Of a stretch of DNA of 31,370 nucleotides, positions 3,104 through 29,472 are shown piece by piece; position 1 is the stretch's first letter, and each line of letters opens with the position of its first letter. A model generated the notes under the pieces. The model made no database searches, was not told the DNA's origin, and saw only the letters and a list, made by a program, of their open reading frames with translations. Source of the stretch: Acidobacteriota bacterium (GTDB taxonomy: Archaea > Nanobdellota > Nanobdellia > Woesearchaeales > DATGWN01); NCBI GenBank assembly GCA_035299465.1, contig DATGWN010000075.1, forward strand, positions 1 through 31,370. Reading direction: 5' to 3'. Made by a program: the position numbers and the translations under genes.

Positions 3104-3135
3104 TATGAAAGTAGGGTAGATATCTAATTATATAG

Positions 3136-4524: not shown

Positions 4525-4548
4525 TGCTTAAAGACGGAACAAAGGATT

Positions 4549-4555: not shown

Positions 4556-4561
4556 GTATCG

Positions 4562-5296
4562 CTAGCAGTAAGGACATAAATCGCCTGCGTTTGGTGCAGG
4601 ATCTGGGCAACATGCATATGGACAAATTACTTCACATTGAGCGCAATAAACACTCCATCCGCCTTCATCGAAAGGGCTATTATCGTTGTTATCACAAGTA
4701 CCGTCACAATTTTCATTTCCTCGGCAATTTCCACCACAAGCATCACAATTACATGGCGCATCAATAGGACCCGAAGGTGCAACCGAGCAATGATCCCAGG
4801 GATCGTGTTTGCCTGGTCCTTCTTCAATGATACCAGGAGCGTCATAGTGAGGCTCACCTGGCGAACAGCGCCCGTTACATGAAGATCCTAAACCTGGTAA
4901 GCTACCTGCAGCTGAAGCTGCATTACATGTACCATCGCAAGAAATTGTACCCCACTGTTCATCGTGTGCATGGCCATCAATACATGTATATTCGTTACGA
5001 CATTGGTTCACACCAGCATATCGGAAGCAAACAGCAGTTGAATAATTTGAGAAGGAATTAAATTCCCCGCGAGTAGCAGTACTTACAAAAATGCTTGTTG
5101 AACCGCTGTTATTAAAATAAAATTCACCAGTCGAAATTTCAGAAGCCCCATTCCAATATTCTGTCGAATAAGGAGTTGTGACTACAACATTCGTACCAGG
5201 TGGAACAATAATTCCACTTGAATTGTCATCAGCCTGTACAAGCATAATAAGTGAAAAAGAAAGCAAAATCCAGAGTATAAATTTGAGCTTCATCAT
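4562..5296 (-). CDS. Secreted cysteine-rich protein (signal peptide + beta-rich N-domain + C-terminal domain with about 30 Cys)
   Basis: The N-terminus 'MMKLKFILWILLSFSLIMLVQA' looks like a signal peptide. The C-terminal half is dense in C-x2-4-C spacing and ends '...CPDPAPNAGDLCPYC'. It starts 12 nt downstream of the 1095-aa gene. Confidence 0.7.
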   Translation of the reverse strand: MMKLKFILWILLSFSLIMLVQADDNSSGIIVPPGTNVVVTTPYSTEYWNGASEISTGEFYFNNSGSTSIFVSTATRGEFNSFSNYSTAVCFRYAGVNQCRNEYTCIDGHAHDEQWGTISCDGTCNAASAAGSLPGLGSSCNGRCSPGEPHYDAPGIIEEGPGKHDPWDHCSVAPSGPIDAPCNCDACGGNCRGNENCDGTCDNNDNSPFDEGGWSVYCAQCEVICPYACCPDPAPNAGDLCPYC

Positions 5297-5308
5297 AAAT
5301 TGTCCTTT

Positions 5309-8300: not shown

Positions 8301-8596
8301 CCTACGCCGCCGACACCGCCAGTTGGCCATGAACCACGGCAATCTGCACCGATGCATAGACCACTAGAACCACGAGCATAACCTGTGACATCAAGCGCTT
8401 GCGTTGGAGTGCCCGTTCCGATACCGACTTTACCCGAAGTACCGTTTACAACGAGATAATCGATAGATGGTGATGATGAATTCTCAATGACAAAATCTCG
8501 AGCATATGCTACTGGAGAAAATGCGAAGAGTAGTAATACCAAGATACTGATTAATTTAGTTGCTGATGTCATTCCCCCTATTCCCCCAGTTCTCAT
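5309..8596 (-). CDS. Giant secreted Gly/Thr/Ser-rich tail-fibre-like surface protein with C-terminal intramolecular-chaperone (peptidase S74-like) autoproteolytic domain
   Basis: Signal peptide. Repeated 'G-x-VGIGT-x-x-P-x-x-KL-x-V-x-G' motifs and three 57-aa tandem repeats. The C-terminal 105 aa, '[11 protein letters not shown]...[10 protein letters not shown]...[15 protein letters not shown]...' followed by a coiled coil, match the phage tail-spike chaperone domain. Confidence 0.8.
6880..7392 (-). repeat. Three tandem 171-bp (57-aa) repeats inside the 1095-aa gene
   Basis: 'ttgagtttgaat...' recurs at 6899, 7070 and 7241. The protein unit is '[12 protein letters not shown](K/L)V(A/S)VSATTA(T/A)[31 protein letters not shown](G/S)SDL'. 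Confidence 0.85.
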
Positions 8597-8616
8597 GTTT
8601 GTACTCTGTACTCTTT

Positions 8617-11600
8617 TTAAATCTTAATGTAAACGTCACCGTTCGAATTCAAACCGACTGAACCGCTGTTCGTCGTTGCTTGGAACGTACCCACAACATC
8701 AAGTTTGTTTGATGCCGTTGCTGTATTGATACCGATGTTTCCGCTGTTTTGGAAAATCTGTGATGATGCTACCGTTGAACCTGCTGTGAAGTATGTGATA
8801 TTTCCTGCGTTACCAGAACCGTCGATACCGCCTGCACCAGCGATTGATGTACATGTGTAAGTGCTGTTCGTGATTTGCTGCAAGACTTGTCCACCCGCAC
8901 ATGAGCCAACTGCTGCTTTCGTAGCTGCCAAGTCATACGCTAGTTTGACTGCGTTCGGAGTCGCAGATGTGTTTGTCGACGAAGATTGTACGCCGTCCGT
9001 TAACATCAAAACACCGATCTGTGATGTCGAACCAGATCTGAATTGGTTTGTGCCTGCCGCAGTCAATCGACCTTGAGCGTCTACAGTGAATGACGGAATT
9101 GCCGTATCAGAACCATATGATCCTGCGCCGACAGCCGTGTTTGCTAAATTGAGTGTGACTGAACCCGAAAGTGCTCCGCCACCAGACATACCTGTGCCTG
9201 CAAGAACTGATGGGTGACCAGACAATCGTGCCCATGGGACTTCACCTGATTGCATCGTGCCTGAAAGCCACAAATCATTCCATCGAGCTCCAGTGGAACC
9301 GAGATTGAAAGTCGCTGACACGTTTGGTAAGAAGTCGCCATTTATTGCAGTCGCTGCCGCAAGATAAACGTCGCCCGTCTGAAGTATGAGATCGCCACCT
9401 GTGATAACGAGATTTCCAGTCATCAAAGTATTTCCTGTGACTGATAATTTGTATGAACCAGGATTGTTATTTCCAATACCAACATTACCTTCGATGACTG
9501 CACCATCGGATGGCGGAGTTGTTGCAAGATAACTATTTCCTACACGAAGATCGTTCAAAGTTCCTCGGTAACCAACCATTTCTACATTGTTGCCAAGTCG
9601 CTTGAATCCGCCGTCAACTGCTGTTCCACTGACTTTCACAATATATGAACCATCAGAAACACCGGAGTGATTTACGCGAAGTGGACTGTCTGCGAGAGGA
9701 GTTCCAAGACCTGTGAAACCTTCGACAATAAGACCATTTGAAGCATTTCCAAGCGATGCGTAACTTGAACCAATCGAGACGTTACCTGAAACGGATAATT
9801 TGGAACCTGGTGATGAAGTGCTCAAACCGATTCGACCGCTCGTCTGGTATAATTGTGCGGATGCCAAGTTTGACGTACCAGTCCAGTATGAGATATTGCC
9901 TGCGTTACCAGTACCAATTGTTCCGCCGATCGCATCGATTGGAAGACATTGAACACCAGTCGTTGTTGTGTTTTGGACAAAGTATCCAGCTGCACAACTT
10001 CCTGCTGTCGCTTTGATGAGTGCAAGATCGTATGCAGTTTTGACTGCTCTGGATGACGCAACTGAATATGTTGAGTTATATGACACACTATCATTCATGA
10101 TAGCGATACCGAATTGTGAAGTATTTGAGTAGGGGACATCTGACAATCGAGCCCATGGGACTGTACCAGCTTGAAGAGTTCCCGTGAAACCGACATCGCC
10201 TTGTACATCCAACTTATACGAAGGAGTTGAAGTTCCAACGCCGACATAACCACTTGTTTTCAAAGACATGACTGGTCCGCCGTATCCTGTATTCGTAATC
10301 GTGAATGTATCTGGGTTGTTTCCGGACATACCTGCACCGATTCCCCATAGATAATTATTACTTGATGACGTCAAAGCGCCACCGATGCTGCCAGTAACGC
10401 CTGAACCGAATGCAATTGATGATTCGCCCACTGCCGTGTTGACGACTTGAATTTGTCCGTTGCTGCCAGAAGTTGTTTCGACAACAAGTTTACCGCCGTA
10501 CAAGTGAGCAAGAGCGCTTGGTGACGTTGTTCCGACACCCAATCTGCCCGCGTCAGTTAATACTGCTTTAGCAGTGCCTGACGTGACGAAAGTCATATTG
10601 TTTGAAGACGGAAGATAGATACCTGCGCCCGAACCTGAGAATGTGCTCGTCGGGGAAAATTGTAATTCGCGTGAAGTGCCGAGTGCGATCTGGCCGTTTA
10701 CCGTGAGTTCTTCGTTTGGCGAAGACGTACCGATACCGACAAGACCTGTATTTGTGATGACCATTCGGTTTGACGTAGAATCATAATCATAGAACTGAAG
10801 CAAGCCACTTCCTGTGTCCGCATATGTTACTTCCCATCGCTGGCTGCCTGAACTGTTGACGAACTTGAGTTGGCTTGAACCAGATGAAGTCTGTTGTAAT
10901 CGCAAATCACCGACGACATGTAATCGACCAGCCGGAGCTGTTACACCAATACCAACGTCACCGCTATTTTCAAACGTAACTCTGTCGTTGCCAGTTGAAT
11001 CGTAGAATCGTAAGTCGTCGCTCGATGCAGGAACGTATGCTAACCATTTGTTTGTGCCTGCTTTCTTGAAGTAGAGTGTTGCTGCCGTAGCCGCGCTCGA
11101 ATCGATTGCTGCAGATGCCGCAGCAGTGCCTGCGCCGACGTGTAAATTACTTGTTGGAGCTGCGGTGCCGATACCGACATTGCCTGAAGTATCTATAGTA
11201 AGAGCAGTATTAGTGCCTAGATCTGCCATTGAGCGGCCGATTTTGAATTTGTCTAAATCGCTATTGTCCGATCCAATCATCCAAGCGACACCGCCTGACG
11301 AGAAACCAAGAGTTGCATCGCCTGCGCCAGCTTGTTCTACTCTGATTATATCAGAAGTAGTTGCATCGTTCTTGTATGCGCGAATGATTTCGCTGCCTGA
11401 AGCAGCAGTCGTACCTACAGCAAGATTTGTTGAAACATACGCATCGCCAGAAACGGAAAGTCGCGTAGTCGGACTTACGCCAATACCGACGTTACCACCG
11501 TCGACGATTCTGATTGCGCTCGTAGAAGTACCGTCTGAAATGTCGACACCACCAAGCCAACCTGCCGATGCACTTGTACCGTAACCGATTCGAAGGACAT

Positions 11601-12021
11601 TCGATGTCGTGTTATCGATCAAAGCGCCTTTTCCATTAAATGAGAGATTATTACCTGCAGAAATCTGGATAGCACCTGCCACATCCAACTTTTGTGCTGG
11701 AGTTGCAGTACCTATACCGACATTAGATGTCAAGTAATATACATAATTAGTAGTAGTATTTCTTCGCCATGGACCGATATATGATTGGTTGATCGCACGG
11801 TTTAGCGTCGTTTCACCAATTCCCGGAATGTCGGGGACTTTGACGACGATCTGGTTTGCATTGTGACCGTTTAAGATGCTGCTTTGGAATGTATGGTTAC
11901 CGACAGATAATAATGTGTCAGAAATGAGCTCGTCTGCAACAGAAAACGGCAACACCAACAGTGTAATGATTGTAAACAGAGCGTAACAGATAATACTTTT
12001 TGAACGTTTCCCTACAGGCAT
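8617..12021 (-). CDS. Giant secreted Gly/Thr/Ser-rich tail-fibre-like surface protein, paralogue of 5309..8596 without the chaperone domain
   Basis: Signal peptide '[20 protein letters not shown]'. At least 10 copies of the GxVGIGTxxPxxKLxVxG motif. The C-terminal 300 aa are about 70-80% identical to an internal segment of the neighbouring gene, in permuted order. Confidence 0.8.
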
Positions 12022-14771: not shown

Positions 14772-15095
14772 ATGCCACATCTCACGGATTTCTGCGTCGA
14801 AGAAATTGAAGGAAAGAAATTCTATGTCTTTCGTGACATCGGACACAGTCTTGATATTTTTGTAGCAAAAGCCAGCGAAAAAGAATTCGATTACACTCCC
14901 GCAAGAATTCAAGTCCATTCATTCCCCGAAACAGGAATCTTCGTTGAAGTGTTGACAAAACAAAGCCGCACGAATATCAAAACAACGGCATATATCGCAA
15001 ACATTCTCAAGACGAACCAGACAGGCATAGAAGCGCTCGTATACAATACACATATTCTCGCGCTACGAACACCTATCCCAAAGTATGCGCTGTAG
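14772..15095 (+). CDS. Hypothetical protein (107 aa)
   Basis: An ORF with coding-like composition and no motif I recognise. Confidence 0.45.
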   Translation: MPHLTDFCVEEIEGKKFYVFRDIGHSLDIFVAKASEKEFDYTPARIQVHSFPETGIFVEVLTKQSRTNIKTTAYIANILKTNQTGIEALVYNTHILALRTPIPKYAL

Positions 15096-18007: not shown

Positions 18008-18457
18008 TTATTTTTTCGCATGATTGGTAAAATACGAGTCAATGTATCCAGATAAATCCATTTTCTCTACAGTAAAGATGCCATTTTTATTAGCAATCTG
18101 ACAAAGCGCATCATTACCAGTAGATGCCACAAATTTGGCTCGACCTGACTTAACAAGCGGTTCCACAAGTGCATAACATTGCTGCGCAGGTTCAATCGTT
18201 AATCCATTACGCGTACCCAAATTGACATCCATTGCATAAAAGTCATATTGTGTATGGCGTGCATGATCAAGCATTGCCGCCGGAGTTGATGCCAACGTGA
18301 CCTCAACAGAGTATCTCGCAAACTTCATGGCGACCATTCTTGCGATCATATCGTCGTGAAATCCAATAAGTGCTTTCATTACCACAAAAATCAATCGTCG
18401 GTTTATAAAATCAATTAATGAACTAAAAAAAGAAAATTGGACTAAAGAAGAAAACAA
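18008..18457 (-). CDS. Possible stand-alone CheY-like receiver-domain protein (probable true start at 18382, 'MKALIGFHDD')
   Basis: The pattern beta1 'ALIGFHDD', 'YDFYAMDVNLG', 'FVASTGND', 'TVEKMD' resembles the REC fold (DD, D, T, K positions). The first 25 codons of the ORF are low-complexity and are probably not translated. Confidence 0.4.
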   Translation of the reverse strand: MFSSLVQFSFFSSLIDFINRRLIFVVMKALIGFHDDMIARMVAMKFARYSVEVTLASTPAAMLDHARHTQYDFYAMDVNLGTRNGLTIEPAQQCYALVEPLVKSGRAKFVASTGNDALCQIANKNGIFTVEKMDLSGYIDSYFTNHAKK

Positions 18458-18488
18458 AAAATGTAGAACGCCTATGCAGGCGACGCAA

Positions 18489-19241
18489 CTATTTCTTTTT
18501 GCCTCTGAACTTGCTGAAGAATTCCATCACTTCAACAGGCAACGCCATGACTACCGTATTACTGGCAGTAGGGCCTAAGCCATCCAGCGTCTGAAGAGTT
18601 CGAAGTTGCATTGCGCCCGTCGAACTTCCCATGATCTGTGCCGCAGCAGCAAGATTCTTTGCCGCTTCCTTATCACCTTCTGATTTGATGATATTTGCGC
18701 GCTTTTCTCGCTCAGCAGCTGCTTGTCGCGACATGATGCGCTTTAAGTCATCTGGAACTTCGATGTCTTGAAGTTTGATTGAATTTACGTCAAGGCCCCA
18801 TGCCTCAGTCTCTTTGTCGACGATTGCACGGATTTCATCGCCAATTTTTTGACGCTCAGTAAGAACACTGTCTAAAGTCATACCGGACAACACATCACGA
18901 AGCGCAGTCTGGGCGTACATTGTAATTGCGTACTGATAATCTTGGATTTTAATGATTGCATCTTCAGATTTGACGACCTTGTAAAAGACCACGCCGTTCG
19001 CATGAATCGGAACGTTATCTTTTGTCATAATCTGTTGCTTTGGAATGTCCACTGCAAGTAATCGCATGTCCACAACAGTCATATGTTGGATGACTGGAAT
19101 AATCCAAGTAAGACCTGCTTCGCGCTTACCGCTATATTTTCCCAGCGTGAATACAAGTCCTGATTCATACTGTTGGACAATTCGAATACCTAGTAGAACT
19201 ATGATAATGCCTGCGATATACAACCAAATAAATGAAATCAT
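18489..19241 (-). CDS. SPFH-family (stomatin/prohibitin-like) membrane protein
   Basis: An N-terminal TM helix, then 'RIVQQYESGLVFTLGKYSGKREAGLTWIIPVIQHMTVVDMR...' and 'RQAAAEREKRANIIKSEGDKEAAKNLAAAA', which form the canonical SPFH core and coiled-coil tail. Confidence 0.9.
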   Translation of the reverse strand: MISFIWLYIAGIIIVLLGIRIVQQYESGLVFTLGKYSGKREAGLTWIIPVIQHMTVVDMRLLAVDIPKQQIMTKDNVPIHANGVVFYKVVKSEDAIIKIQDYQYAITMYAQTALRDVLSGMTLDSVLTERQKIGDEIRAIVDKETEAWGLDVNSIKLQDIEVPDDLKRIMSRQAAAEREKRANIIKSEGDKEAAKNLAAAAQIMGSSTGAMQLRTLQTLDGLGPTASNTVVMALPVEVMEFFSKFRGKKK

Positions 19242-19319: not shown

Positions 19320-19964
19320 TTATTGCGAATGCCCACCGCGCACAAGCGTACCTATAAGTGTAACCACTTGCGAATCTGTGACCTCGCTAAAATCCTCATA
19401 ACTCATACCCACGTATGCAACAGGTTCCTCAATAACTTGCACCGCCACTATTTCGTCAACGGATTTCGATAACTCACCGCGCATATCTTTAGATATCACC
19501 GGCACCGCGACGATAATTTTTTGTGGCTTTTGTTTGCGTAACGAAAGAAGCGCGGCTCGCAACGTCAATCCCGTAGCAATACCATCATCCACAACTACCG
19601 CAATCTTTGCGTGAGCACTCACAGATTTACCGTTGCAATACACATCTCTACGGCGCTTAGCTTCAACCAACTGTTTTTTTCCTGCAGAAGCCAACCACAC
19701 CGGATCGACTGGCTCTTTTTTGTTAACGACAACATCGCCATGTTCGCTGATCGCAGCAATCGCATATTCAGAGTCAGCCGGATGCGAAATTTTACGAGCA
19801 ATAACACAATCTAGGGGAGCGTGCAATGTACGTGCAATCTCATAACCTAAGACTACGCCTCCTCGCGGCAATGCATACACAACGACATCTTGCCCTTTGA
19901 AGCGTTCCAACAAATTCGCAAGTTGTCTGCCTGCATCGGCCCTGTCTTTGAACTTCATGAGCAT
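19320..19964 (-). CDS. Type I phosphoribosyltransferase-domain protein (COG1926-like)
   Basis: The PRPP-binding loop 'IAVVVDDGIATGLT' and an N-terminal 'VVVYALPRGGVVLGYEIA'. A TATA-like 'TTTATATA' at 19981-19988 suggests a leaderless start near M3 (19958). Confidence 0.75.
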   Translation of the reverse strand: MLMKFKDRADAGRQLANLLERFKGQDVVVYALPRGGVVLGYEIARTLHAPLDCVIARKISHPADSEYAIAAISEHGDVVVNKKEPVDPVWLASAGKKQLVEAKRRRDVYCNGKSVSAHAKIAVVVDDGIATGLTLRAALLSLRKQKPQKIIVAVPVISKDMRGELSKSVDEIVAVQVIEEPVAYVGMSYEDFSEVTDSQVVTLIGTLVRGGHSQ

Positions 19965-20036: not shown

Positions 20037-22490
20037 TTACTTATATGTCGCTTTCAAGAAATCCTTGATCTGCTGCGCTTTCTGCTTGCCAATTCCGTCG
20101 ACAAATGCCAACGCTTCAACAGAACATATCAGGATATTTTGGACACAACCAAAATGTTCCAGTAATTTTTTTGCTGTGGACATGCCAACGTGCGGAATGG
20201 AACTAATCACGTATTCTTGTTGTTCACGAAGCGACGCAGGTTTATTTGACGCATGCGGCGAAAATGAACTCGTCGAACCTTGCTGTTCTCGACGTGCAAT
20301 CATAAAAAGCAAACTTGCTGTCTCTTTTTCGTTACGCGTGAATAAAATCGGAATCTGATAGCTCACCGCAACGGTTGAAAGCATGCCGTAAATTGAATTT
20401 GGATGAATATTTCGTACAGAGAATAGACTTTCCTCGCCCTCAATTATGACAACTGGTTTGAGAACGGATTCTCGTAAGATCTTAAGCTGCGTCAACAGTC
20501 TTCCGTCCAAAATGGAATCGATAAAGTCAGGCACTCGCTTGTATTCAACAACGACATCTTTAGATAATGTGAAATCGCCTACCGCTAATTGTTCGAGCTT
20601 GAGGGCGATAGGTAGTTCAAATAATTGCTTTAACACACCGCTGCCCTTTTCGCGGTGATCAGCGAATATTACTATTGAATTTTCAGTTTTAGGCACTTTT
20701 TGTTCGGCAACCGGCACGGATGGTTTCTCGACGGCGATAGAAGTCATTGTCTTTTTTTCAAGTTTAATTTCTGTCATTTGAGATTCAATAGTTGCAGACT
20801 CAGTTTGAGGTGTAACGGATTCAACAGTGTGTGTCGCGACTGTCTGTGATGCAACTGTCGTAAGCGGTTCCAACGGCAACGTGTGCGACATTGTTGCAGT
20901 CTTTGCCAAAACAAAATCTGCGCGTAGTGTTTGTTGTGCACCAGAACGTTGCGCTTTGACTTTCTTAAGAATTTCGTACATATTTTTTTCTTTGCGTTGC
21001 GCAACGTATCGAAACGCCATATCTCGCGTATTTCGTGCACAAAGGATAACGACGCGACCTTCATCGTGACGTCCAGTTCGTCCTTTTCGCTGGATAGTTC
21101 GAATCGCGCTTGGAATCGGCTCGAAGAAAATAACAGTATCCACCGACGGGATATCGAGTCCTTCTTCGCCGACAGAAGACATACAGATGACGTTGAAGTC
21201 ACCGTCTTTGAAATCGGCAAGCATTGCTAGTTGCTCTTTTTGAGACATGCCGGTACCTTGCTTCTTTGCTTGGCCGACGAATAATTTTGCATTTACTTTT
21301 GGATGCGTGTTTAATTGCTCCACGATAGATACCAAAGAATCACGATATTGACTAAACAAGATAATCTTTGCATCGGCGGATTTGCGCAAGGTCGCGTCAA
21401 CGATATTGAGCAACGCTTTCATTTTTGGATGCACGATCTCTGACGAGATTAATTCCTTAGTCTTCTGCATAGATAATCGTATATGTGGATCAGCACAGAT
21501 TGATACAACTGCTTTCGATTTCTTTTGCGCAGCTTGTTCATACATCGACTGCAAATATGTATAGAGACTTTGCACGCCTTGACTTTCGATAAGTTCGACG
21601 GCGTGTGAAATTTTAAGCGCTTGAGCTGCAAGAGAAATTCCCGACGCAACTGCAGGATCAAATTGTTGTTGTGCCATGCGCTGTTGCAAAGCGCCTACGA
21701 ATTTTAGAAGATCCGTTTTCAAAAGCGCGGAAGGATTTTTTCCTTCAAGAAAACCAAGACTTTTGATTTGACTTATACGTTGCGAATATGCTTTTTTCAA
21801 AAGCGTCGCTATATCAACGAATTCCGGCGGAAGATCAACTTCCACATAATCCACTTTTGTTTTTTGTATATATGGCTCGACATCAGGAGACGTCATTTCA
21901 CGATATTCGATTTGCGAGATAGAAAGATTTTGACAAATCTCCGTTATCGATTCCAGATCAGAACCTGGAGATGCAGTCAATGCAAGAATAAGCGGATTCT
22001 TTGCCTGTTTCATATATTGTTCTGCGACCCACACGTAACTATAATCACCTGTCGCGCGATGAGCTTCGTCAAATACGAGTAACGATATATCCGAGAGTTT
22101 GATGCGAGATGCAAGAATATCATTTTCAAGGCCTTGCGGAGTACTAAATATGATATCTGAGGCGACAAACAAGTCTGCACGTTTTTCAGGCGAAATCTGT
22201 CCGGTAAACACTGCCATCGAGGATTCATCTGCTTCCACCATGTCTTTGAACGTCTGCAGATGTTGGTTTACCAGCGGTCGCGTAGGTGCAAGTATGAGCA
22301 CTTTTGATCCTGGATATAATTTGGTGCGATGAAGCGCCATTAACAAGGAGATCAGCGTTTTACCCAAACCTGTCGGCAAAACGACCAGAGTGTTTGCCTT
22401 TACAGCCGTCGCAGTGATGAGCTCTTGATACAATCGAGGTTTCACATGCGGTTTGAGTTTGAACATAGTAGCCAGGATTGATTGCTGCAT
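20037..22490 (-). CDS. hef: Hef: SF2 helicase + ERCC4/XPF nuclease + HhH2 (fork-structure helicase/endonuclease)
   Basis: Helicase motifs 'LPTGLGKT', 'DEAH', 'TASP', 'QRKGRTGR'. Nuclease 'IFADHREKGSGV...LAVGDFTLS...VVEYKRVPDFIDSI'. A C-terminal HhH pair 'SIPHVGMSTAKKLLEHFG...VDGIGKQKAQQI'. Confidence 0.9.
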   Translation of the reverse strand: MQQSILATMFKLKPHVKPRLYQELITATAVKANTLVVLPTGLGKTLISLLMALHRTKLYPGSKVLILAPTRPLVNQHLQTFKDMVEADESSMAVFTGQISPEKRADLFVASDIIFSTPQGLENDILASRIKLSDISLLVFDEAHRATGDYSYVWVAEQYMKQAKNPLILALTASPGSDLESITEICQNLSISQIEYREMTSPDVEPYIQKTKVDYVEVDLPPEFVDIATLLKKAYSQRISQIKSLGFLEGKNPSALLKTDLLKFVGALQQRMAQQQFDPAVASGISLAAQALKISHAVELIESQGVQSLYTYLQSMYEQAAQKKSKAVVSICADPHIRLSMQKTKELISSEIVHPKMKALLNIVDATLRKSADAKIILFSQYRDSLVSIVEQLNTHPKVNAKLFVGQAKKQGTGMSQKEQLAMLADFKDGDFNVICMSSVGEEGLDIPSVDTVIFFEPIPSAIRTIQRKGRTGRHDEGRVVILCARNTRDMAFRYVAQRKEKNMYEILKKVKAQRSGAQQTLRADFVLAKTATMSHTLPLEPLTTVASQTVATHTVESVTPQTESATIESQMTEIKLEKKTMTSIAVEKPSVPVAEQKVPKTENSIVIFADHREKGSGVLKQLFELPIALKLEQLAVGDFTLSKDVVVEYKRVPDFIDSILDGRLLTQLKILRESVLKPVVIIEGEESLFSVRNIHPNSIYGMLSTVAVSYQIPILFTRNEKETASLLFMIARREQQGSTSSFSPHASNKPASLREQQEYVISSIPHVGMSTAKKLLEHFGCVQNILICSVEALAFVDGIGKQKAQQIKDFLKATYK

Positions 22491-22585: not shown

Positions 22586-23425
22586 CTACAGAATGTCAAT
22601 ATAATCTTCCATCGATTCAATACAAATCGAACCATCATCACACACACTCCCTCGGACACGCACGATATCACCCTCTTTGACACACGATTGATAACACCAT
22701 AACAACGTCCACACGTTTGTCAAACCTTCTGCGGCACCTACTGAAAACGAACGAGGCATAAAGTCGGAACGGTTGCAACCAACAACGCCACAAATTTCTC
22801 TTTTCTCGGACAATATACGAGCACAAATAACAGGCATCTTTTTTGGCAAAAAGCGAATTGTCATTGCAACGCCGTCTGAAAACACCAACGTCGACCACCG
22901 TCTCAAAAGAATCTTTTCTGCGCAAAATTTTGAGGAAAAACTCGCGAATTTGTGTGTACGTGACATTGCGTACGCCTCATCTACAGCATGCGCATCCAAA
23001 AGCACTCTCAGCGCAACAATATGCGATCGTACAAGCGCATGTGCCTCCTCCCCATACACACAAAAATCAACATCCTTCGCAGGAGAAAGCTCTAGCATGA
23101 ATGAACCAAAGATACCTATATCGCATTGTGCAATTCCAATATACTCGAGAAATTCACCGATCATTCGAAATTGCGGCGGCATAGAATGTTTCATACACGC
23201 GTAAGCGCTTCTTGCATGAATCACGAACCCCTCAGGAATTTTCTCAAGAACACTGTCGGACCGAATTACTTTTTTGAATCGGCGACCACTTGCGTCAACC
23301 TTATCACCTTGTTCGTTCAGAACATATACTTTTCTGCCGTACACTGCACCATCCAAGCTATGCGTGACGATATAGTAATTGAACGCCATATCGCGAACAT
23401 AATCACACGCGCTAAGGACTCTCAT
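22586..23425 (-). CDS. Pol-beta-superfamily nucleotidyltransferase-fold protein with C-terminal OB-like beta domain (start reassigned to Met59 of the listed ORF)
   Basis: 'GIFGSFMLELSPAKDVDFCVYG' fits the hG[GS]x9-13[DE]h[DE]h pattern. The ATG at 23425 forms an ATGA overlap with the upstream methyltransferase stop, whereas the listed start (23599) would overlap that gene by 178 nt. Confidence 0.5.
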   Translation of the reverse strand: MRVLSACDYVRDMAFNYYIVTHSLDGAVYGRKVYVLNEQGDKVDASGRRFKKVIRSDSVLEKIPEGFVIHARSAYACMKHSMPPQFRMIGEFLEYIGIAQCDIGIFGSFMLELSPAKDVDFCVYGEEAHALVRSHIVALRVLLDAHAVDEAYAMSRTHKFASFSSKFCAEKILLRRWSTLVFSDGVAMTIRFLPKKMPVICARILSEKREICGVVGCNRSDFMPRSFSVGAAEGLTNVWTLLWCYQSCVKEGDIVRVRGSVCDDGSICIESMEDYIDIL

Positions 23426-24111
23426 AACGGTCTCATCGCATGAATATTTATGTACGTATTTTTTCCAGCGACTTCCTTTGGTATCGTTCGCACATGTGAA
23501 ATAATGAACCCAGCGTCGCAAACAATTTGTCGCAATCCCGTCGGCGTATCTCGGAATCGATACCGAGGTAATGCATACTTCTTGTCGGCGGGCAGCCAAC
23601 CCTCGTCTCGCCCCATCCCTTCAATAAAACCGAAAAATAATGCTCCCGTCGGCTTAGTGATGCGATACAATTCTGAAAGCACTACCCGTATCTGTGCAAG
23701 TGGCGTCGTCGTCAAAGAGCAATTAGTCCACACTCCGTCAAAATAGCCGTCAGAAAAAACGCGTAAATCTTTTTCATAATTCATTTGTCGAGTTTCAATA
23801 CCCTTATCTGCCGCACGCATCAGCGCATATGCAGACAAATCAACACCCAGTACTGACAAACCACGCAAAGAAAGTTGCTGTGCATCGCGACCTGGACCGC
23901 AACCAAGATCCAACACTCGGCCGTCGACACTCATTCGAAAAAAGTCATAATCTTTCTCATACAGATGTGCACAATATTTTGTTCTACCTTCGTACTGAGC
24001 AGAATATGCATTGTATAGTTCTTGTTTGATAAGAATTCTATCTGATTCGCAAACATCCGCAGTAAGCGGAGCACAACCAGTCGCAAACTCACGAATTTTG
24101 TCGATATGCAT
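23422..24111 (-). CDS. Class I SAM-dependent methyltransferase
   Basis: Motif I 'VLDLGCGPGRDAQQL', motif II 'GVDLS' and a post-II acidic residue, in a Rossmann-like layout. Confidence 0.8.
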   Translation of the reverse strand: MHIDKIREFATGCAPLTADVCESDRILIKQELYNAYSAQYEGRTKYCAHLYEKDYDFFRMSVDGRVLDLGCGPGRDAQQLSLRGLSVLGVDLSAYALMRAADKGIETRQMNYEKDLRVFSDGYFDGVWTNCSLTTTPLAQIRVVLSELYRITKPTGALFFGFIEGMGRDEGWLPADKKYALPRYRFRDTPTGLRQIVCDAGFIISHVRTIPKEVAGKNTYINIHAMRPL

Positions 24112-24658
24112 CTTTAATCATCTCCACCATTTCTCCCTTGCTTCGGCAGCGACACAGATTATCAACCGCAATCATACCGTATTGTGACGTTTGTTGTAGC
24201 AAATGTCGATCCAAAGAACATATTGTGTCAAAATGTTCAAGCCATAACGGTTTTGCACCAGTGCGCTTGTACATCTTCTGTTGTAGTCGCTCTCGTCGTA
24301 AAACAGGAGGACATGTCAAATAAAAGCCAATTTTTTTGCCCGGCAGCGAATCGTACAAAGCTGGGCTGCATTGCACGCCCTCAATCAATATTTTTTTATC
24401 ACACGAGTACTGAGCAATTTCATTAAACAACAATCCATACGCAGTACTGTGCACAGCGTAACCTGCAAAGTCATCGACACCAAGCACCCGTCCTGCCGAG
24501 TGCGAAGGAGCTACAGACACATCTGCGACACCAGCTACTTTTCGTAACGTCTTTAGCGTATCAGTATGTATTAACTCTTCAATACCCAAAGCACACGCAA
24601 TATCTTGGCCTATCGTCGACTTACCACTACCCGGCATTCCGCCAATCATCACTATCAT
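24089..24658 (-). CDS. P-loop kinase, 2-phosphoglycerate-kinase-like
   Basis: The N-terminus 'MIVMIGGMPGSGKSTIGQDIACALGIEELIHTDTLKTLRK' closely resembles the 2PGK family N-terminus, including its Walker A motif. It overlaps its neighbours at both ends (23 nt and 4 nt). Confidence 0.6.
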   Translation of the reverse strand: MIVMIGGMPGSGKSTIGQDIACALGIEELIHTDTLKTLRKVAGVADVSVAPSHSAGRVLGVDDFAGYAVHSTAYGLLFNEIAQYSCDKKILIEGVQCSPALYDSLPGKKIGFYLTCPPVLRRERLQQKMYKRTGAKPLWLEHFDTICSLDRHLLQQTSQYGMIAVDNLCRCRSKGEMVEMIKDAYRQNS

Positions 24659-25479
24659 TGTGCCCGGTACGCCAACTTGCTAAAGTCTTGCTTAGTCATG
24701 CGAGTGAACTTCATATCATTATGATTTCGAATGATATCCGCCAATCTATGCACGCCTGCAACGACTTGTGCTTCGTCACCATATTTGAAAGTCCGAGGAT
24801 ACGCGTAGAAACCCGGAATAAATCCGTGATACTCGATTTCCACCTGACGTAAATATCGATCACTGCCGGTCGGATTGCACGTTGAGACCGAAACATCATA
24901 GACTCGACCGTCATCCCTATCCAAGAATGTCAAAGATGCTACAACTTTATCCATATCGCCGACATATCGATAACCCTCAGACGCCAACGATTGCGATTGT
25001 GTAAATACCTCATCCAGCGACGAGACGGGTTGTATTTTTTCCGAGCGTTTGAGAACATACGCGCAAAAAGGATTTCGGTTAGGTAGATTCTTTTTCTGCT
25101 TCAGACTAAAACCATTCTCGCGTTGTGCAAATGTTGCCGTGTTTGTACCTTTCACAAAATACGACTCCTGAGATCTTTTCTCGTCCGACAATTCTCCTTC
25201 CAGATACTTCGCGGCACGTTGCCCGTAAATGATTTCAGCCAAATCTCTCGTTGACATTTCTAACTGTTGTGGAATTGTCGGTGTGAGTTTTGCTTCGAAC
25301 TCCACATTTGGAAATTCTGTGGGCAGTGCGTCAAATCCTTCAGATTCGTACATGTTTTTTATGTAATTCATTGTGTTCCCCCGTTCATTGTGTTGTTGAT
25401 TGTCTTGCTTGCGTTGTTCATTTCGAGTGTGTATTGAGCGTTTTGTCCAGCACGAATTCGAGTCGAGGTATTTTGTCAA
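24655..25479 (-). CDS. Candidate CYTH-like (triphosphate tunnel) domain protein; probable true start Met37 (25371)
   Basis: From Met37 it has an N-terminal 'NVEFEAKL' (ExExK), 'QESYFVKG', 'SLKQK' and a C-terminal 'RQVEIEYHG' (ExExE-like). Spacing is compatible with an 8-strand CYTH tunnel. This is a motif-level call only. Confidence 0.35.
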   Translation of the reverse strand: MTKYLDSNSCWTKRSIHTRNEQRKQDNQQHNERGNTMNYIKNMYESEGFDALPTEFPNVEFEAKLTPTIPQQLEMSTRDLAEIIYGQRAAKYLEGELSDEKRSQESYFVKGTNTATFAQRENGFSLKQKKNLPNRNPFCAYVLKRSEKIQPVSSLDEVFTQSQSLASEGYRYVGDMDKVVASLTFLDRDDGRVYDVSVSTCNPTGSDRYLRQVEIEYHGFIPGFYAYPRTFKYGDEAQVVAGVHRLADIIRNHNDMKFTRMTKQDFSKLAYRAQ

Positions 25480-26038
25480 GTGCTGGTACCCTCAGCGGTT
25501 CGTAGCCGACTCGCCGATAGGCCGCGTGTAGCTGCTTGTGGATTTCGCGCATCATCTCTTCGCCTTCTTTGCGTTGGCCGTCAGTTTGGTAGATTGAGAG
25601 TGGATCAAGAATCAGAACACCGGCGTAGCGTCGTTTGCTGACCGCATCCACGATGTGTTCAGGCACTTTTTTTCCTTCTCGTACTTCGCGTTCCAGATAA
25701 TATCCTAGCGTATCCGGAAGACCCCTGTCGAGATACACCGGTCCGTTGAGTTGAGAGATTGTTGCTTCAAGACCGTTTTGCACTTGCATAATCTTTTGCT
25801 GGAATTCGACGAAGTCTGTCCAGGGAAGCGGACCATTGCTTTCCATGTTCGCGCGTATCAGTGGCCGAGCGATTTCTGGCATCGTATAGTATCCTTTGTC
25901 TGATAAACCGTTGCAAAGTGTTGTTTTTCCGCATCCGGGAGGCCCTGTAATCACATAGAGTCGGTTCCCGTTGTGGCTGAGAGGAGATTCTATCATGTGG
26001 CACCGATATGTATATATACTTGTACTGAAAATAACCAT
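25418..26038 (-). CDS. P-loop NTPase, AAA_28/COG3911-like predicted ATPase/kinase (alternative start Met15 at 25996)
   Basis: Walker A 'ITGPPGCGKTTL' and Walker B-like 'GVLILDPL'. It is the first gene of the five-gene minus-strand operon. Confidence 0.6.
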   Translation of the reverse strand: MVIFSTSIYTYRCHMIESPLSHNGNRLYVITGPPGCGKTTLCNGLSDKGYYTMPEIARPLIRANMESNGPLPWTDFVEFQQKIMQVQNGLEATISQLNGPVYLDRGLPDTLGYYLEREVREGKKVPEHIVDAVSKRRYAGVLILDPLSIYQTDGQRKEGEEMMREIHKQLHAAYRRVGYEPLRVPALDKIPRLEFVLDKTLNTHSK

Positions 26039-26119
26039 TTCGTACTAAAAAGTAGGCATAGTGTTGTACATTTCGCAGATAATGCGGTACAGCACGTGCC
26101 CTATTTTTTCCAATTACAG

Positions 26120-26162
26120 ACTAATCAAATAATACAAACTAATTTTCATAAAAACTAATTAT
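26120..26162 (+). promoter_or_regulatory. Three direct ACTAAT(T/C) repeats (16-18 bp spacing) overlapping a TATA-like 'CATAAAAAC' about 30 nt upstream of the regulator start; candidate operator in the divergent promoter
   Basis: ACTAAT occurs at 26120, 26138 and 26154. 'aaactaatttt' and 'aaactaattat' are near-identical 11-mers. Confidence 0.35.
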
Positions 26163-26182
26163 CAGATTCGAGAGATGTTTGA

Positions 26183-27052
26183 ATGCTTACCAAAGAAGTG
26201 CGATTGCAGATAGAAGAGATTGTGCGAAACAAACCGTGTTCTGTACAAGAAATCGCGCAGACAATCGACAAAAATTGGCGAACAGCTGACAGATATGTTC
26301 AGCAAATCCAAGAAGAGCATGGCACAATCGCCACAAGAATTTTTCGCGAAGGATCCAGAGGCGCATTAAAAATCGTATTCTGGAATGCGCTCTCCGACAA
26401 AAAAGGCACGGCATATCAAGACCGTCTAAAGACGCTCATTGAAACAGGAAAAACAAAGTTCGATTTCTCCCCGATGCACATCTATCAATTTGCCGATTCA
26501 CAAAAACGCCAAGCACAAATCACCAAGGAGTTTATTTCGTCGGAGTTTCGTAAGTTAGTCGAGTCCGCACAACAGCAAGTATGTTTCTTTTCAGGCAATC
26601 TAAGTTGGCTCAAAGACGAAAAAGACATGATCAACCTCATAGAATCGCTCATCAAACGAAGCGTCAAAGTGAAATTTCTCACCCGAATCGATATCACGTC
26701 GCAAACCATGGCGGCAAATATTCTCAAGCTTAATTTACGCTACGGCGACGACATGGTCGCAATCAAACACTGCGAACAACCACTGCGTGCATTCATCGTA
26801 GACGACAAAATCATCAGTCTCAAAGAAGTGTACTCGCCATCACATCAAAAGGAAATCAAAGAAACCACATTCATCTATTATAGAATAAAAGACATCGTTT
26901 GGGTAAGTTGGCTTCAGAAAGTGTTCTGGCATCTATGGGAACAATCCATAGATGCTCAGTCACGAATCGACGCGCTGCTCACTATAGAAAACATCGATTC
27001 ACATATCACTACACATATAAGTAAGCAGAAAACACCTAAAAAGATATCATGA
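26183..27052 (+). CDS. Winged-helix transcriptional regulator (possibly TrmB-like) with C-terminal effector domain
   Basis: The N-terminus 'IEEIVRNKPCSVQEIAQTIDKNWRTADRYVQQIQEEHG' looks like a wHTH. It is transcribed divergently from the five-gene operon, and its stop overlaps the trmY start (ATGA). Confidence 0.5.
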   Translation: MLTKEVRLQIEEIVRNKPCSVQEIAQTIDKNWRTADRYVQQIQEEHGTIATRIFREGSRGALKIVFWNALSDKKGTAYQDRLKTLIETGKTKFDFSPMHIYQFADSQKRQAQITKEFISSEFRKLVESAQQQVCFFSGNLSWLKDEKDMINLIESLIKRSVKVKFLTRIDITSQTMAANILKLNLRYGDDMVAIKHCEQPLRAFIVDDKIISLKEVYSPSHQKEIKETTFIYYRIKDIVWVSWLQKVFWHLWEQSIDAQSRIDALLTIENIDSHITTHISKQKTPKKIS

Positions 27053-27621
27053 GAAATTTCATCCTCGTATCGGCAAAAGGAAGAACGCGCGCAGACTGGT
27101 CAGACTTAATGCACGCAGGCAGATTAGACATCGTTTGCCACGCCGTGATCTCAGCGCTGTACACTAGTAATGCCGTCAGAGATGACGTACAAATAGATAT
27201 CTCACTCAACGGACCGCCGATACCGCCATTACTGATTACGATTCAAAATCACCCAGAAGCAACACTCTCAAAAAAAGATATCGGTACGCTCATTAAAATC
27301 GCACAAAGAAAATTTCGTGAAGGCGAGCGACGCGAAGCACACCCTGGTGTCTTTGTAGAGAAGAAGTCTTGGCAAGCACTTGTAAACGAAGCAAACGATA
27401 CAGGAAAAAAAGTATTCTATCTAGATAGTGATGGTGAAGACGTCGCCACAGCAGACATTCCGGCAGACGCTACCTTCGTTATCGGCGATCACGACGGATT
27501 TGAAAAACATGATGTAAAATTCCTCAAGTCCCGTGCAACACCGATTAGCATCGGAAAACGAGTGTATTTCACATCCCAAGTAATTTCCTTCCTCAACATC
27601 TGGATGGACAGAAAAGCTTGA
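27049..27621 (+). CDS. trmY: tRNA (pseudouridine54-N1)-methyltransferase TrmY (SPOUT, COG1901)
   Basis: 'MRNFILVSAKGRTRADWSDLMHAGRLDIVCHAV...LNGPPIPPL' and 'FVIGDHDGF' match the TrmY N-terminal and C-terminal signatures. Confidence 0.7.
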   Translation: MRNFILVSAKGRTRADWSDLMHAGRLDIVCHAVISALYTSNAVRDDVQIDISLNGPPIPPLLITIQNHPEATLSKKDIGTLIKIAQRKFREGERREAHPGVFVEKKSWQALVNEANDTGKKVFYLDSDGEDVATADIPADATFVIGDHDGFEKHDVKFLKSRATPISIGKRVYFTSQVISFLNIWMDRKA

Positions 27622-28437: not shown

Positions 28438-29472
28438 TTAGCCAAAAAACGCGTTCAACCCTTTCTGGGCGCTCGTAGAAGTTTTCTTTTTTACATCAGC
28501 AAGCGTCGATTTGACACGATCGGCATTGAATTCAAACTTGCCAACCAACAAATCAATAATAGCAGCTTCATTTACCGGTTTCCACTCAAGTTTGTAATCC
28601 GTGACTGCAGGCATATTTTCAAATAAGTCATACACGTCATGCCAAGAATGTGTAAAGAATTTTTCCCATCCGGCCTGGGCGAACATGACATCATAATCCG
28701 TCGTTGATTTTACCATTTTTAGTGCAGTCTTTGGACCGATGCCCTTAATTCCGCCTACATTAAAATCCGTTCCGACAAGAATTGACAATACAATAAGTTG
28801 CTTTCTGTCAATGCCCAATTCGTTGAGCACGTCTGACAATGTTACAACCTGAGGGCTGACGTATTCGAAAGTGACTTTGGAGACTTTTTTGCGCCGACCT
28901 AATATGGACAGATTCCGCACGACTTTAGGCGCGCCAAATAATAACGCGTCAGTGTCCTGCGACGCAATAAAATCGACATCGCCGCGTTTTGCCATGATTG
29001 CCGCTTGAGCTTCTCCTTCACTAGGAGCTTGGATAACCGGTACGCCCAACGCAACCAACAATGCCTTTGCGTCAACAACCATCTCTGGTGTCAATCGCAT
29101 CGTACGTGACGCGAATTTCTTCATGCCGTCAATATCTTCTCGCTCTTTGGCAATATTATATTCTTTTTGTGCAGCCGCTTTGAGAGCGCTTCGACGCTCA
29201 ATTTCTTTTGATTTTAATTCAGGATGCTCACCATCAAAAACATACACGCACTTGATACCTGCTTGCATTAATTTCGTCGTTCGAGCAAACAATCCAACAA
29301 GATGGCTAGTGACATTTCCTTTCGAATCTGTAAGAAGTGAACCATCAGGACCTCGCATCACCGCAAGAAATTGATATAAGAAATTAAACGCGTCAATCGC
29401 TATAGTCTTTCCGGACAATTCGTCTAATGTGATTGCCTTTCCTTCGACAAAATCTGTTAACGCTACTCCCAT
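28438..29472 (-). CDS. fen: Flap endonuclease 1 (FEN-1) with C-terminal PIP box
   Basis: 'MGVALTDFV...IAIDAFNFLYQFLA', 'VYVFDGEHPELK', H3TH 'GTDFNVGGIKGIGPKTALKMVK', and a C-terminal 'QKGLNAFFG' (QxxLxxFF). Confidence 0.9.
   Translation of the reverse strand: MGVALTDFVEGKAITLDELSGKTIAIDAFNFLYQFLAVMRGPDGSLLTDSKGNVTSHLVGLFARTTKLMQAGIKCVYVFDGEHPELKSKEIERRSALKAAAQKEYNIAKEREDIDGMKKFASRTMRLTPEMVVDAKALLVALGVPVIQAPSEGEAQAAIMAKRGDVDFIASQDTDALLFGAPKVVRNLSILGRRKKVSKVTFEYVSPQVVTLSDVLNELGIDRKQLIVLSILVGTDFNVGGIKGIGPKTALKMVKSTTDYDVMFAQAGWEKFFTHSWHDVYDLFENMPAVTDYKLEWKPVNEAAIIDLLVGKFEFNADRVKSTLADVKKKTSTSAQKGLNAFFG

Follow-up and report, generated by a model that had tools for sequence, protein, structure and literature searches.

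A conserved, widely scattered gene cluster joining a kinase, a SAM enzyme and a nucleotidyltransferase-OB protein: a possible nucleotide-modification module

The window, which is the whole stretch of 31,370 nucleotides that was analysed, probably derives from a DPANN archaeon and contains an operon of five minus-strand genes opposite a divergent partner. All five open reading frames are present at the coordinates given in an earlier note, which had described the operon from the letters alone. The features are as follows:

G1, ORF 25418-26038, more likely 25418-25996, minus strand: AAA_28 P-loop NTPase or kinase (NadR ribosylnicotinamide-kinase-like family)
G2, ORF 24655-25479, more likely 24655-25371, minus strand: orphan protein of 238 aa
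G3, 24089-24658, minus strand: 2-phosphoglycerate-kinase-like (2PGK-like) P-loop kinase, invariant member of the core trio
G4, 23422-24111, minus strand: class-I SAM-dependent methyltransferase
G5, ORF 22586-23599, more likely 22586-23425, minus strand: signature protein, nucleotidyltransferase (NTase) plus OB fold
Shared control region, 26039-26182, no strand assigned: between G1 and G6
G6, 26183-27052, plus strand: divergent conserved partner, putative regulator with winged-helix and PLD-like domains

The ATGA junctions at 24655-24658 and 23422-23425 and the 23-nt overlap between G3 and G4 (24089-24111) were reproduced, and the chain of overlaps that had been drawn through all five genes stands at G2/G3, G3/G4 and G4/G5. 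It breaks at G1/G2 if G2 begins at the ATG at 25371, which is preceded by GGGGGAA and is most likely the true start; G1 and G2 would then be separated by a 46-nt spacer. G5 most likely starts at the ATG at 23425, and G1 probably at the ATG at 25996 rather than at 26038, because the promoter region then aligns with those of related loci.

The signature protein G5 consists of an N-terminal beta domain (residues ~1-70), a Pol-beta NTase core (~71-203) and a C-terminal OB fold (~204-279). The core carries the Pol-beta signature, hG[GS] followed by [DE]x[DE] on the next strand, as GS at 107-108 with D118 and D120, which are invariant or nearly so in 58 sequences; no third catalytic carboxylate was found in the core, where D118 and D120 alone are acidic in at least 80% of the sequences. 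The five-stranded barrel at the C-terminus superposes on the OB folds of SSB, RPA or aaRS anticodon-binding domains. G5 itself has no match in Pfam; among 46 members of its family, 11 match NTP_transf_2 (best 1.4e-6), 8 the MTPAP-like palm and 5 Polbeta. Word-index homologue searches with G5 and G2 were nearly empty, and the G5 family surfaced only in an exhaustive profile search. One family member is fused to a polyprenyl synthetase. No full-length structural match to G5 was found in the PDB or BFVD, and ligase-like structural matches had a probability of at most 0.3. The best PDB sequence matches of G5, though non-significant, are the non-canonical poly(A)/poly(U) polymerases Trf4, TUT4 and Cid1, the CCA-adding enzyme and minimal NTases of the MNT/MenT type. 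Like these, G5 shows hGS...DxD after a helix in its Pol-beta core; unlike them, it lacks the PAP-associated or tRNA-nucleotidyltransferase body domains and carries a C-terminal OB fold as well as an N-terminal beta domain that is unique to it. This family, for which neither Pfam nor NCBIfam has a model, is apparently a new one.

The kinase G3 matches AAA_18 (2e-8) and, over its N-terminal part only, the 2PGK model NF003259 (2e-11, 43.8 bits); its orthologue in locus L006 matches the same model over the whole kinase domain (8e-33, 114 bits, model positions 94-297 of 306). Since both fall far under the equivalog cut-off of 343 bits, G3 is a relative of the 2PGK family and not a 2PGK. It is 42% identical to the kinase of locus L001, and its closest characterised relatives are 2PGK and mevalonate-3-phosphate 5-kinase. 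G4 passes two Pfam models, Methyltransf_11 (3.3e-15, 56.9 bits, gathering score 21.2) and Methyltransf_25 (2e-14, 54.5 bits, gathering score 27), and is 58% identical to its orthologue in L001. The slot that it fills is occupied by a class-I methyltransferase in 11 loci and by a radical-SAM enzyme in 12, with no locus encoding both, and the swap between the two occurred repeatedly. The radical-SAM partner, which belongs to related loci and not to this window, shares UPF0004, a radical-SAM core and six invariant cysteines with the methylthiotransferases (MTTases) MiaB, MtaB, e-MtaB and RimO. It scores 230-252 bits on TIGR00089 but remains under every clade-specific model of the four described MTTase clades. 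Because its alignment to TIGR00089 ends at about 365 of 429 and its length is only 388-400 aa, it lacks the C-terminal TRAM domain of those enzymes; it also differs from them in always being linked to the kinase and the NTase-OB protein, and in being interchangeable with a class-I methyltransferase, the form found in the window.

G1 matches Pfam AAA_28 (PF13521; 1e-32, 114.1 bits, cut-off 27) and has homologues within the cluster in L009, L016, L025, L032, L034 and L055. PDB sequence searches with G1, G3, G4 and G6 returned generic or non-significant matches only. The assignments proposed in the earlier note for G1 (AAA_28), G3 (2PGK-like kinase), G4 (SAM methyltransferase) and G5 (Pol-beta NTase with OB tail) are supported. 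The CYTH (PF01928) assignment of G2, however, failed every profile test. G2 has no match in Pfam or NCBIfam at E<=0.1, a PDB sequence search gave no support for CYTH, a homologue search of 5.8 billion clusters recovered G2 alone, and a single-sequence AF2 model is unusable (pLDDT 35.6). In the corresponding place, L010, L016, L025 and L055 encode Pfam CYTH proteins, yet G2 aligns to five such positional CYTH proteins with an hhalign probability of 0.2 and does not match an ad hoc HMM of them at E<=10. Position and two motifs recognised by eye, EFEAK (residues 23-27) for the ExExK expected near the N-terminus and VEIE (176-179) for the acidic strand expected near the C-terminus, speak for CYTH, with several basic motif residues missing, and G2 is possibly a very divergent triphosphate-tunnel protein. 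An unannotated gene of 236 aa at a similar position in L055 was considered as a relative of G2 and is unrelated.

The divergent pairing of the operon with the gene at 26183-27052 (+), and the repeated motif in the promoter they share, were seen as described earlier: TACARACTAAT occurs three times at 26115-26163 with a spacing of 16-18 nt. A second element, the 13-mer GTACAACACTATG at 26057-26069 on the minus strand, followed by ...TAGTAC, has an exact copy in L010 and copies with one mismatch in L016 and L025, without exception immediately upstream of the first cluster gene; by estimate, about 0.013 exact copies would be expected by chance in the ~0.9 Mb searched. G6 overlaps trmY (27049-27621) by 4 nt, and its homologues (E 1e-50 to 1e-75) lie divergent and upstream of the cluster in ten loci (L006, L009, L010, L011, L012, L025, L029, L032, L034 and L055). 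For the earlier description of G6 as a winged-helix regulator there are weak domain matches only: PLDc_2 (0.0034), HTH_11 (3e-4, one member), DUF7342 (three members) and TBPIP across the family, and MkoB (1.4e-5) and DrmC (6e-4) in PADLOC, with no relative of G6 in the PDB. The conserved divergent position and the operator-like 13-mer favour a regulatory role, perhaps that of a TrmB-like or winged-helix transcription regulator.

Of 24 well-flanked, non-redundant loci, which come from archaea, Firmicutes and a soil bacterium, 23 contain the core trio of kinase, SAM enzyme and NTase-OB protein, in shuffled gene order and orientation. That the same gene set is found in these loci of unrelated organisms puts the arrangement far beyond chance and upholds the claim that the genes form one functional unit. 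One might still suppose that these are housekeeping genes with no relation to one another, brought together by accident or by lineage-specific synteny, since every one of the domain families is common on its own and some archaeal loci share a topoisomerase, SerRS and DHQS-II as neighbours. However, the genes overlap, the trio orthologues of the window and a bacterial contig are still 42%, 58% and 41% identical, and the neighbourhood analysis effectively refutes this explanation, to which we give next to no credence.

The cluster appears to be rare and widely scattered and, as the earlier note had suspected, undescribed: no match to the gene combination was found in Pfam, NCBIfam, PADLOC or the searched literature, and the literature held nothing relevant on TRAM-less MTTases. 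Against PADLOC-DB 2.0, G5 and G2 had no match and G1, G3 and G4 only generic P-loop or methyltransferase matches; no assignment to a known anti-phage defence system resulted. A phage origin was rejected because the sole "viral" contig match, L051, looks cellular, with FtsH and choline-binding proteins. No Rfam family was found in the window, and the cluster has no tRNA or other RNA gene as a constant neighbour. The polyprenyl-synthetase fusion, together with a CDP-alcohol transferase encoded nearby, had suggested a role in lipid salvage; this idea was abandoned because both are single cases and because inspection of G1-G5 by eye showed no obvious membrane segments.

The earlier note had likened the operon to Pnkp/Hen1 RNA repair and to mRNA capping. 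In an RNA end-healing or cap-like system, the kinase would phosphorylate a 5'-OH or 5'-P, while the phosphohydrolase would either tidy the 3' end or take off the gamma-phosphate. Adding a nucleotide or cap would fall to the NTase-OB protein, and protecting the end to the methyltransferase. The likeness holds in outline: Pnkp/Hen1 likewise encodes a kinase, phosphoesterase, nucleotidyltransferase and SAM methyltransferase together, and capping combines a triphosphatase-like enzyme, an NTase followed by an OB fold (an order also seen in ligases) and a methyltransferase. Moreover, the enzymes nearest to G5 in sequence, though without significance, act on RNA 3' ends, and phosphoesterases of several folds recur among the loci, including a kinase-metallophosphoesterase fusion reminiscent of Pnkp. 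In detail the likeness weakens. The NTase is of the Pol-beta and not the ligase or guanylyltransferase fold and has no KxDG lysine, the obligatory kinase is 2PGK-like and not Pnk-like, G2 is not a demonstrable triphosphate-tunnel enzyme, and the cluster is prokaryotic. Ligase, Hen1 and Pnkp profiles are absent from the matches listed for G1-G5 (for G4, the best 25 of 32 NCBIfam families), and G4, whose matches are generic, shows no Hen1, N7 or other cap-methyltransferase signature. In 12 of 23 loci its place is taken, after repeated swaps, by a MiaB-type methylthiotransferase, which can methylate neither ribose nor N7. The accessory enzymes, which belong to the free-nucleotide or nucleotide-sugar type, weaken the analogy further. 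We regard end healing or capping as improbable.

These accessory enzymes are NT5C, NUDIX, His_Phos, UDP-sugar dehydrogenase and GFO/IDH/MocA. An alternative explanation is that the cluster serves a small-molecule pathway only, leading to a nucleotide sugar, cofactor or secondary metabolite. In such a pathway the NTase would activate a phospho-intermediate supplied by the kinase as an NMP or NDP conjugate, for the SAM enzyme to decorate and hydrolases to trim, and the OB fold would bind a partner other than nucleic acid. The closest relatives of the kinase, the resemblance of G4 to small-molecule methyltransferases and that of G6 to ligand-sensing regulators fit this explanation, as do the GFO/IDH/MocA oxidoreductase that is the first gene of the Firmicute version (6 loci), the UDP-sugar dehydrogenase in one locus, the polyprenyl-synthetase fusion, and a distant subfamily whose neighbours are glycosyltransferases, a GAPDH-family dehydrogenase and a PPDK-like enzyme. 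However, the OB fold is of the type that binds ssDNA, ssRNA or anticodons and is well conserved: the proteins of the window and L001 share 58% identity within it and 42% elsewhere. Metabolites are seldom activated by a Pol-beta NTase with an RNA-polymerase-like palm, and the known MTTases all act on macromolecules (PMC10702137). On balance a purely small-molecule role seems rather unlikely.

The reading we prefer, though tentatively and as something short of probable, is that the operon represents a conserved, mobile type of multi-enzyme module by which a modified nucleotide is made and installed. Among the closest known systems are pathways for nucleotide analogues: viperin with CMPK2, oxetanocin OxsB with OxsA, and cordycepin Cns1-3 each cluster a radical-SAM or other modifying enzyme with a free-nucleotide kinase and phosphohydrolase. 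The radical-SAM families of viperin and oxetanocin differ from that of the cluster, being viperin-like or B12-dependent, and none of the three pathways is known to include an NTase-OB protein or to use a class-I methyltransferase as an alternative. Observed here are the genes and how they are conserved, together with their folds and catalytic motifs; the substrates, the order of steps and the role of G6 as regulator we infer. G5 would be the committed enzyme, moving a nucleotide onto a nucleic-acid acceptor whose single strand, most likely a stretch of RNA or tRNA or else a 3' end, is held by the OB fold. The adjoining SAM enzyme, G4 here and the TRAM-less MiaB/RimO-type MTTase in about half of the relatives, would decorate the nucleotide, either free before transfer or on the nucleic acid afterwards. 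How far the nucleotide or intermediate is phosphorylated would depend on G3, aided here by G1, and on a phosphohydrolase. The phosphohydrolase would be G2 in the CYTH position here and a CYTH, HD, NUDIX/His_Phos, NT5C or metallophosphoesterase protein elsewhere. In archaea, G6 probably controls the operon through the conserved 13-mer operator.

Several observations weigh against the installation of a modified nucleotide. MiaB-family enzymes are known to act on tRNA A37 and ribosomal protein S12 (PMC10702137), and none is known to act on a free nucleotide. The kinase relatives phosphorylate small acids and not nucleotides, and the nearest solved relatives of G4 are generic small-molecule methyltransferases. 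The NTase core lacks a third conserved acidic residue, the OB domain of G5 is acidic (pI 4.4), a consistently linked tRNA or RNA gene is absent, and the role of G2 is without profile-level support. If RNA were instead modified directly, for example in the tRNA anticodon loop, then the NTase-OB protein could be the RNA-targeting subunit, its aaRS-like OB fold replacing the missing TRAM of the MTTase or guiding the methyltransferase, while the kinase and the NTase would use TiaS-like chemistry to activate or mark the base or ribose concerned. We consider this unlikely, though less so than the other alternatives.

If the cluster is what it seems to be, then the NTase with its OB tail would represent a new protein family without a Pfam or NCBIfam model or a full-length structural relative, and the radical-SAM partner a fifth, TRAM-less branch of the MiaB/RimO methylthiotransferases. 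It would also imply a new multi-enzyme logic, one that can use either a class-I methyltransferase or a radical-SAM methylthiotransferase in the same slot, and a novel modified nucleotide or RNA or DNA end modification in DPANN archaea and in gut or rumen Firmicutes. A bolder and doubtful proposal is that the trio is a conflict or niche-adaptation system, carried by mobile elements in Firmicutes and fixed in the reduced genomes of DPANN archaea. It would make a non-canonical nucleotide, 2-methylthio-type or methylated, which the OB-guided Pol-beta enzyme would attach to nucleic-acid 3' ends as a cap that blocks or marks them. If this were the case, then the TRAM-less enzyme would be the first MiaB-family MTTase to act beyond tRNA A37 and S12, and G5 would found a new class of enzymes that modify nucleic-acid ends. 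Because the host genomes are reduced, every operon they retain is informative, and this one would provide a tractable three-protein system for biochemistry.

The five cluster genes on the minus strand (G1-G5; the coordinates are those of the open reading frames) and the divergent gene G6 are laid out as follows.

25418-26038, minus strand: G1, AAA_28 protein; likelier start ATG at 25996
24655-25479, minus strand: G2, orphan protein; likeliest start ATG at 25371, behind a GGGGGAA element
24089-24658, minus strand: G3, kinase
23422-24111, minus strand: G4, methyltransferase
22586-23599, minus strand: G5, nucleotidyltransferase (NTase)-OB signature protein
26183-27052, plus strand: G6, diverging from G1-G5 across a 144-nt intergenic region

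The gene junctions reported in the earlier note are as described there: ATGA at 24655-24658 combines the stop of G2 with the start of G3, ATGA at 23422-23425 combines the stop of G4 with the start of G5, and G3 and G4 overlap by 23 nt (24089-24111). G1 probably starts at the ATG at 25996, because the stretch from 26038 to 25996 aligns with the promoter elements of related loci. The start of G2 is most likely the ATG at 25371, which leaves a 46-nt spacer after G1. Neither an Rfam family nor a tRNA gene was found within the window, and no RNA gene was consistently linked to the cluster across loci.

Loci fetched through G5 relatives and mapped by phmmer against the window proteins comprise 51 non-redundant loci; in 24 of these the NTase gene is flanked by 2 kb or more on each side. 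A G3-type kinase and a SAM enzyme lie within 4.5 kb of the NTase gene in 23 of these 24 well-flanked loci. This conservation bears out the functional unit proposed in the earlier note, and a juxtaposition of the cluster genes by chance is excluded. The trio of kinase, SAM enzyme and NTase occurs in the orders kinase-SAM-NTase, kinase-NTase-SAM and SAM-kinase-NTase, and with the NTase gene convergent with SAM-kinase; the shuffled order and orientation argue for a functional rather than a historical linkage. The three trio proteins of the window are 42%, 58% and 41% identical to those of a soil bacterial contig, where an ECF sigma factor adjoins. The lone exception among the 24 loci, L005, encodes a distant NTase-OB subfamily without the kinase. 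Its neighbours (2717-11414) are a PPDK_N enzyme, a GAPDH-family dehydrogenase, two glycosyltransferases, an HD protein, a CysRS-like protein and a methyltransferase, a set that looks like a different, thiol-glycoside-type pathway. The fullest archaeal version, L055, has two additional genes within the cluster (4178-4888 and 5394-6260), which encode a 236-aa protein that has no Pfam match and is not related to G2, and a weak radical-SAM protein of 288 aa.

The assignment of G1 to AAA_28 was confirmed (Pfam, 1e-32), and the gene is present in seven loci, the window included. G4 is a class-I SAM methyltransferase, as had been proposed (Methyltransf_11, 3e-15; Methyltransf_25, 2e-14). G3 matches AAA_18 (Pfam, 2e-8) and the 2-phosphoglycerate kinase (2PGK) model NF003259 (2e-11), the latter far under the model's cut-off; the supposed 2PGK-like kinase is therefore a relative of 2PGK but not 2PGK itself. 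Its orthologue in L006 matches NF003259 across the whole kinase domain (8e-33), the next match being mevalonate-3-phosphate 5-kinase. PDB sequence searches with G1, G3, G4 and G6 were uninformative, the solved structures nearest to G4 being generic small-molecule methyltransferases.

A CYTH enzyme, suggested earlier for the second gene, does belong to the system, but G2 itself is unproven as such. The genes at G2's position in L010, L016, L025 and L055 encode bona fide CYTH proteins (Pfam E-values 3e-11, 8e-14 and 2e-7 for the first three), and in the Bacilli locus L004 an HTH-CYTH fusion directly follows the NTase gene. A search of 5.8 billion clusters gave no homologue of G2, and Pfam and NCBIfam gave no match; the assignment is unproven since similarity to CYTH profiles is absent and the predicted structure is unusable. 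An N-terminal EFEAK and a C-terminal VEIE motif can be read in G2 by eye. Elsewhere in the window, a small ORF (14772-15095, plus strand) weakly matches an ad hoc HMM of the positional CYTH proteins (E 0.0044, 11.8 bits).

The signature protein G5 has no match in Pfam or NCBIfam, and word-index searches returned only G5 itself and one relative. An exhaustive profile search of 1.84 billion representatives yielded a family of 93 proteins, 61 of them at E<=1e-10 and mostly 277-320 aa long. Across an alignment of 58 family sequences there is no variation at G107, D118 and D120 and almost none at G104, S108, K52, G125, W177, F192, G213, P224 and R225; the conserved residues correspond to the hGS...DxD signature of Pol-beta nucleotidyltransferases, the class to which G5 had been assigned. 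A third conserved acidic residue was looked for in the same alignment and not found. NTP_transf_2 is reached by 11 of 46 family members (best 1.4e-6), an MTPAP-like palm by 8 and Polbeta by 5, and in the PDB the family profile gives no significant sequence match, the best (TUT4, Trf4 and an MNT antitoxin) being aligned on hGS...DxD. The AlphaFold2 model built from the family alignment is confident (pLDDT 94.7, pTM 0.91) and has three parts: a beta domain at the N-terminus (about residues 1-70), the NTase core, and a beta barrel at the C-terminus (about 204-279); it has no full-length structural match in the PDB or BFVD.

In the soil bacterial locus L001 (3297-4123) the G5 homologue is broken by a frameshift between 3923 and 3947, and the OB domain runs on in a different frame, 58% identical to G5 residues 221-279. 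The break recurs identically in three independent assemblies (see also L002, L003 and L007); a pseudogene, a programmed frameshift and a split gene are the possible explanations. A distant family member of 640 aa, P0068 (L052, 857-2779), is fused to a polyprenyl synthetase and, on its short contig, adjoins a PIN-MazE pair and an SHMT-like gene. The single 'viral' contig among the matches looks cellular, and a phage origin was rejected.

Of the well-flanked loci, 11 fill the SAM slot with a G4-type methyltransferase, in some cases with two methyltransferases in tandem, and 12 with a radical-SAM protein; no locus has both. NTases linked to either enzyme are interspersed on a neighbour-joining tree, so the swap occurred several times. 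The earlier note had drawn an analogy to RNA end-healing or capping, and the enzyme classes fit; however, a methylthiotransferase has repeatedly taken the place of the methyltransferase and a ligase-fold enzyme is absent, neither of which fits. This analogy is quite improbable, and the cluster does not have the defining features of Pnkp/Hen1 or of capping enzymes. The radical-SAM partners belong to the MiaB/RimO family of methylthiotransferases (MTTases; TIGR00089, 230-252 bits), and all 18 full-length copies retain three auxiliary-cluster cysteines and CxxxCxxC. Since they are 388-400 aa long and their alignment covers just positions 17-365 or so of the model's 429, they lack the TRAM domain. 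MTTases are described as three-domain enzymes in four clades, with tRNA A37 and S12 Asp88 as the sole known substrates (PMC10702137). The branch seen here, which has no TRAM domain and is linked with a kinase and an NTase, falls outside that description and is undescribed; the defining features of canonical MTTases are likewise not those of the cluster. Direct modification of a tRNA or RNA loop, with the OB fold standing in for TRAM, seems unlikely; it accounts poorly for the kinase, the hydrolases and the sugar enzymes.

These hydrolases recur across loci, and their fold differs from locus to locus: CYTH in archaeal loci and L004, HD in L013 and L051, a CobC-like His_Phos_1 domain fused to NUDIX in L006 and L012, an NT5C 5'-nucleotidase in L054, and a metallophosphoesterase in seven archaeal loci. 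The metallophosphoesterase has a longer form of about 380-394 aa in L021 and L034, the latter with a CMP-kinase-like domain at the N-terminus. A GFO/IDH/MocA oxidoreductase is encoded by the first gene of six Firmicute versions (L004, L020, L023, L027, L054 and L056), and a UDP-sugar dehydrogenase is added in one Firmicute version. Together with the kinase family, G4 and the polyprenyl-synthetase fusion, the oxidoreductase and the dehydrogenase would fit a purely small-molecule pathway. We consider such a pathway quite unlikely; it leaves unexplained the conserved OB fold, in which the window and L001 share 58% identity, compared with 42% over the remainder of G5.

The contig is labelled Acidobacteriota, yet it encodes the following archaeal markers.

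20037-22490: Hef (874 bits, Hef equivalog)
27049-27621: TrmY
28438-29472: FEN1-type XPG nuclease

A Candidatus Nanoarchaeia MAG is the source of the nearest named relative of G5; from this and the marker genes, the window is probably DPANN DNA that was mis-binned. The trio of Firmicute loci has as neighbours a tRNA gene together with a large serine recombinase (L004, 2603-4370; L022, 3865-5409) or lies among PcfJ, SIR2, PIN (PIN7) and NAD-ligase genes (L053, 1-16849), surroundings which suggest carriage on mobile (integrative or conjugative) elements. Two adjacent giant ORFs of the window (5309-8596 and 8617-12021, minus strand; 1095 and 1134 aa) contain phage tail-fibre repeats, one also a Peptidase_S74 intramolecular chaperone domain, and may be surface/adhesion proteins or viral remnants. 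Just beyond Hef, also on the minus strand, are genes for an SPFH/Band-7 protein, which has a small partner ORF upstream of it, and for a phosphoribosyltransferase (18008-19241 and 19320-19964); L037 has a similar phosphoribosyltransferase near the NTase.

Ten other archaeal loci have a G6 homologue (E 1e-50 to 1e-75) that is upstream of the cluster and divergent from it. The divergent placement of the proposed winged-helix regulator is thus conserved. Domain matches in the G6 group are weak (HTH_11, DUF7342, TBPIP winged helix, PLDc_2, and PADLOC DrmC and MkoB), and a sequence search found no PDB relative. The repeated motif noticed earlier in the G1/G6 intergenic region is TACARACTAAT, present three times at 16-18 nt spacing. 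In addition, GTACAACACTATG occurs exactly at 26057-26069 of the window's minus strand and in L010, and with one mismatch in L016 and L025, always immediately upstream of the first cluster gene and followed after about 10-15 nt by a (T)GTAC(A)-like half-site; we estimate the chance expectation of an exact shared 13-mer at ~0.013 in the roughly 0.9 Mb searched. The conserved divergent position and the shared element make it plausible that G6 regulates the cluster. G6 overlaps trmY, the gene for tRNA pseudouridine-54 N1-methyltransferase, by 4 nt (27049-27052), so that in the window this putative regulator shares its transcript with a tRNA methyltransferase gene; in related loci G6 adjoins a topoisomerase instead.

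The components of the cluster fall in known superfamilies, and its signature protein G5 lacks both a family model and a structural relative. The loci show an invariant pair of kinase and nucleic-acid-type OB-NTase, an adjoining interchangeable methyl- or methylthio-donor enzyme, a replaceable phosphohydrolase, and nucleotide or nucleotide-sugar accessory enzymes. One reading, which we put forward tentatively, uses all of these features: the cluster may encode a pathway for synthesis of a modified nucleotide and for its installation. The hydrolase and kinase(s) would set the phosphate state, the SAM enzyme would methylate or methylthiolate the nucleotide, and G5, its OB fold anchored on single-stranded nucleic acid, would transfer it, with the decoration occurring either before or after transfer. 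The trio matched no PADLOC system and was not found in the open-access literature searched, in keeping with the earlier view that the combination is undescribed. Within that literature the trio is categorically new as a system, one whose function we infer.
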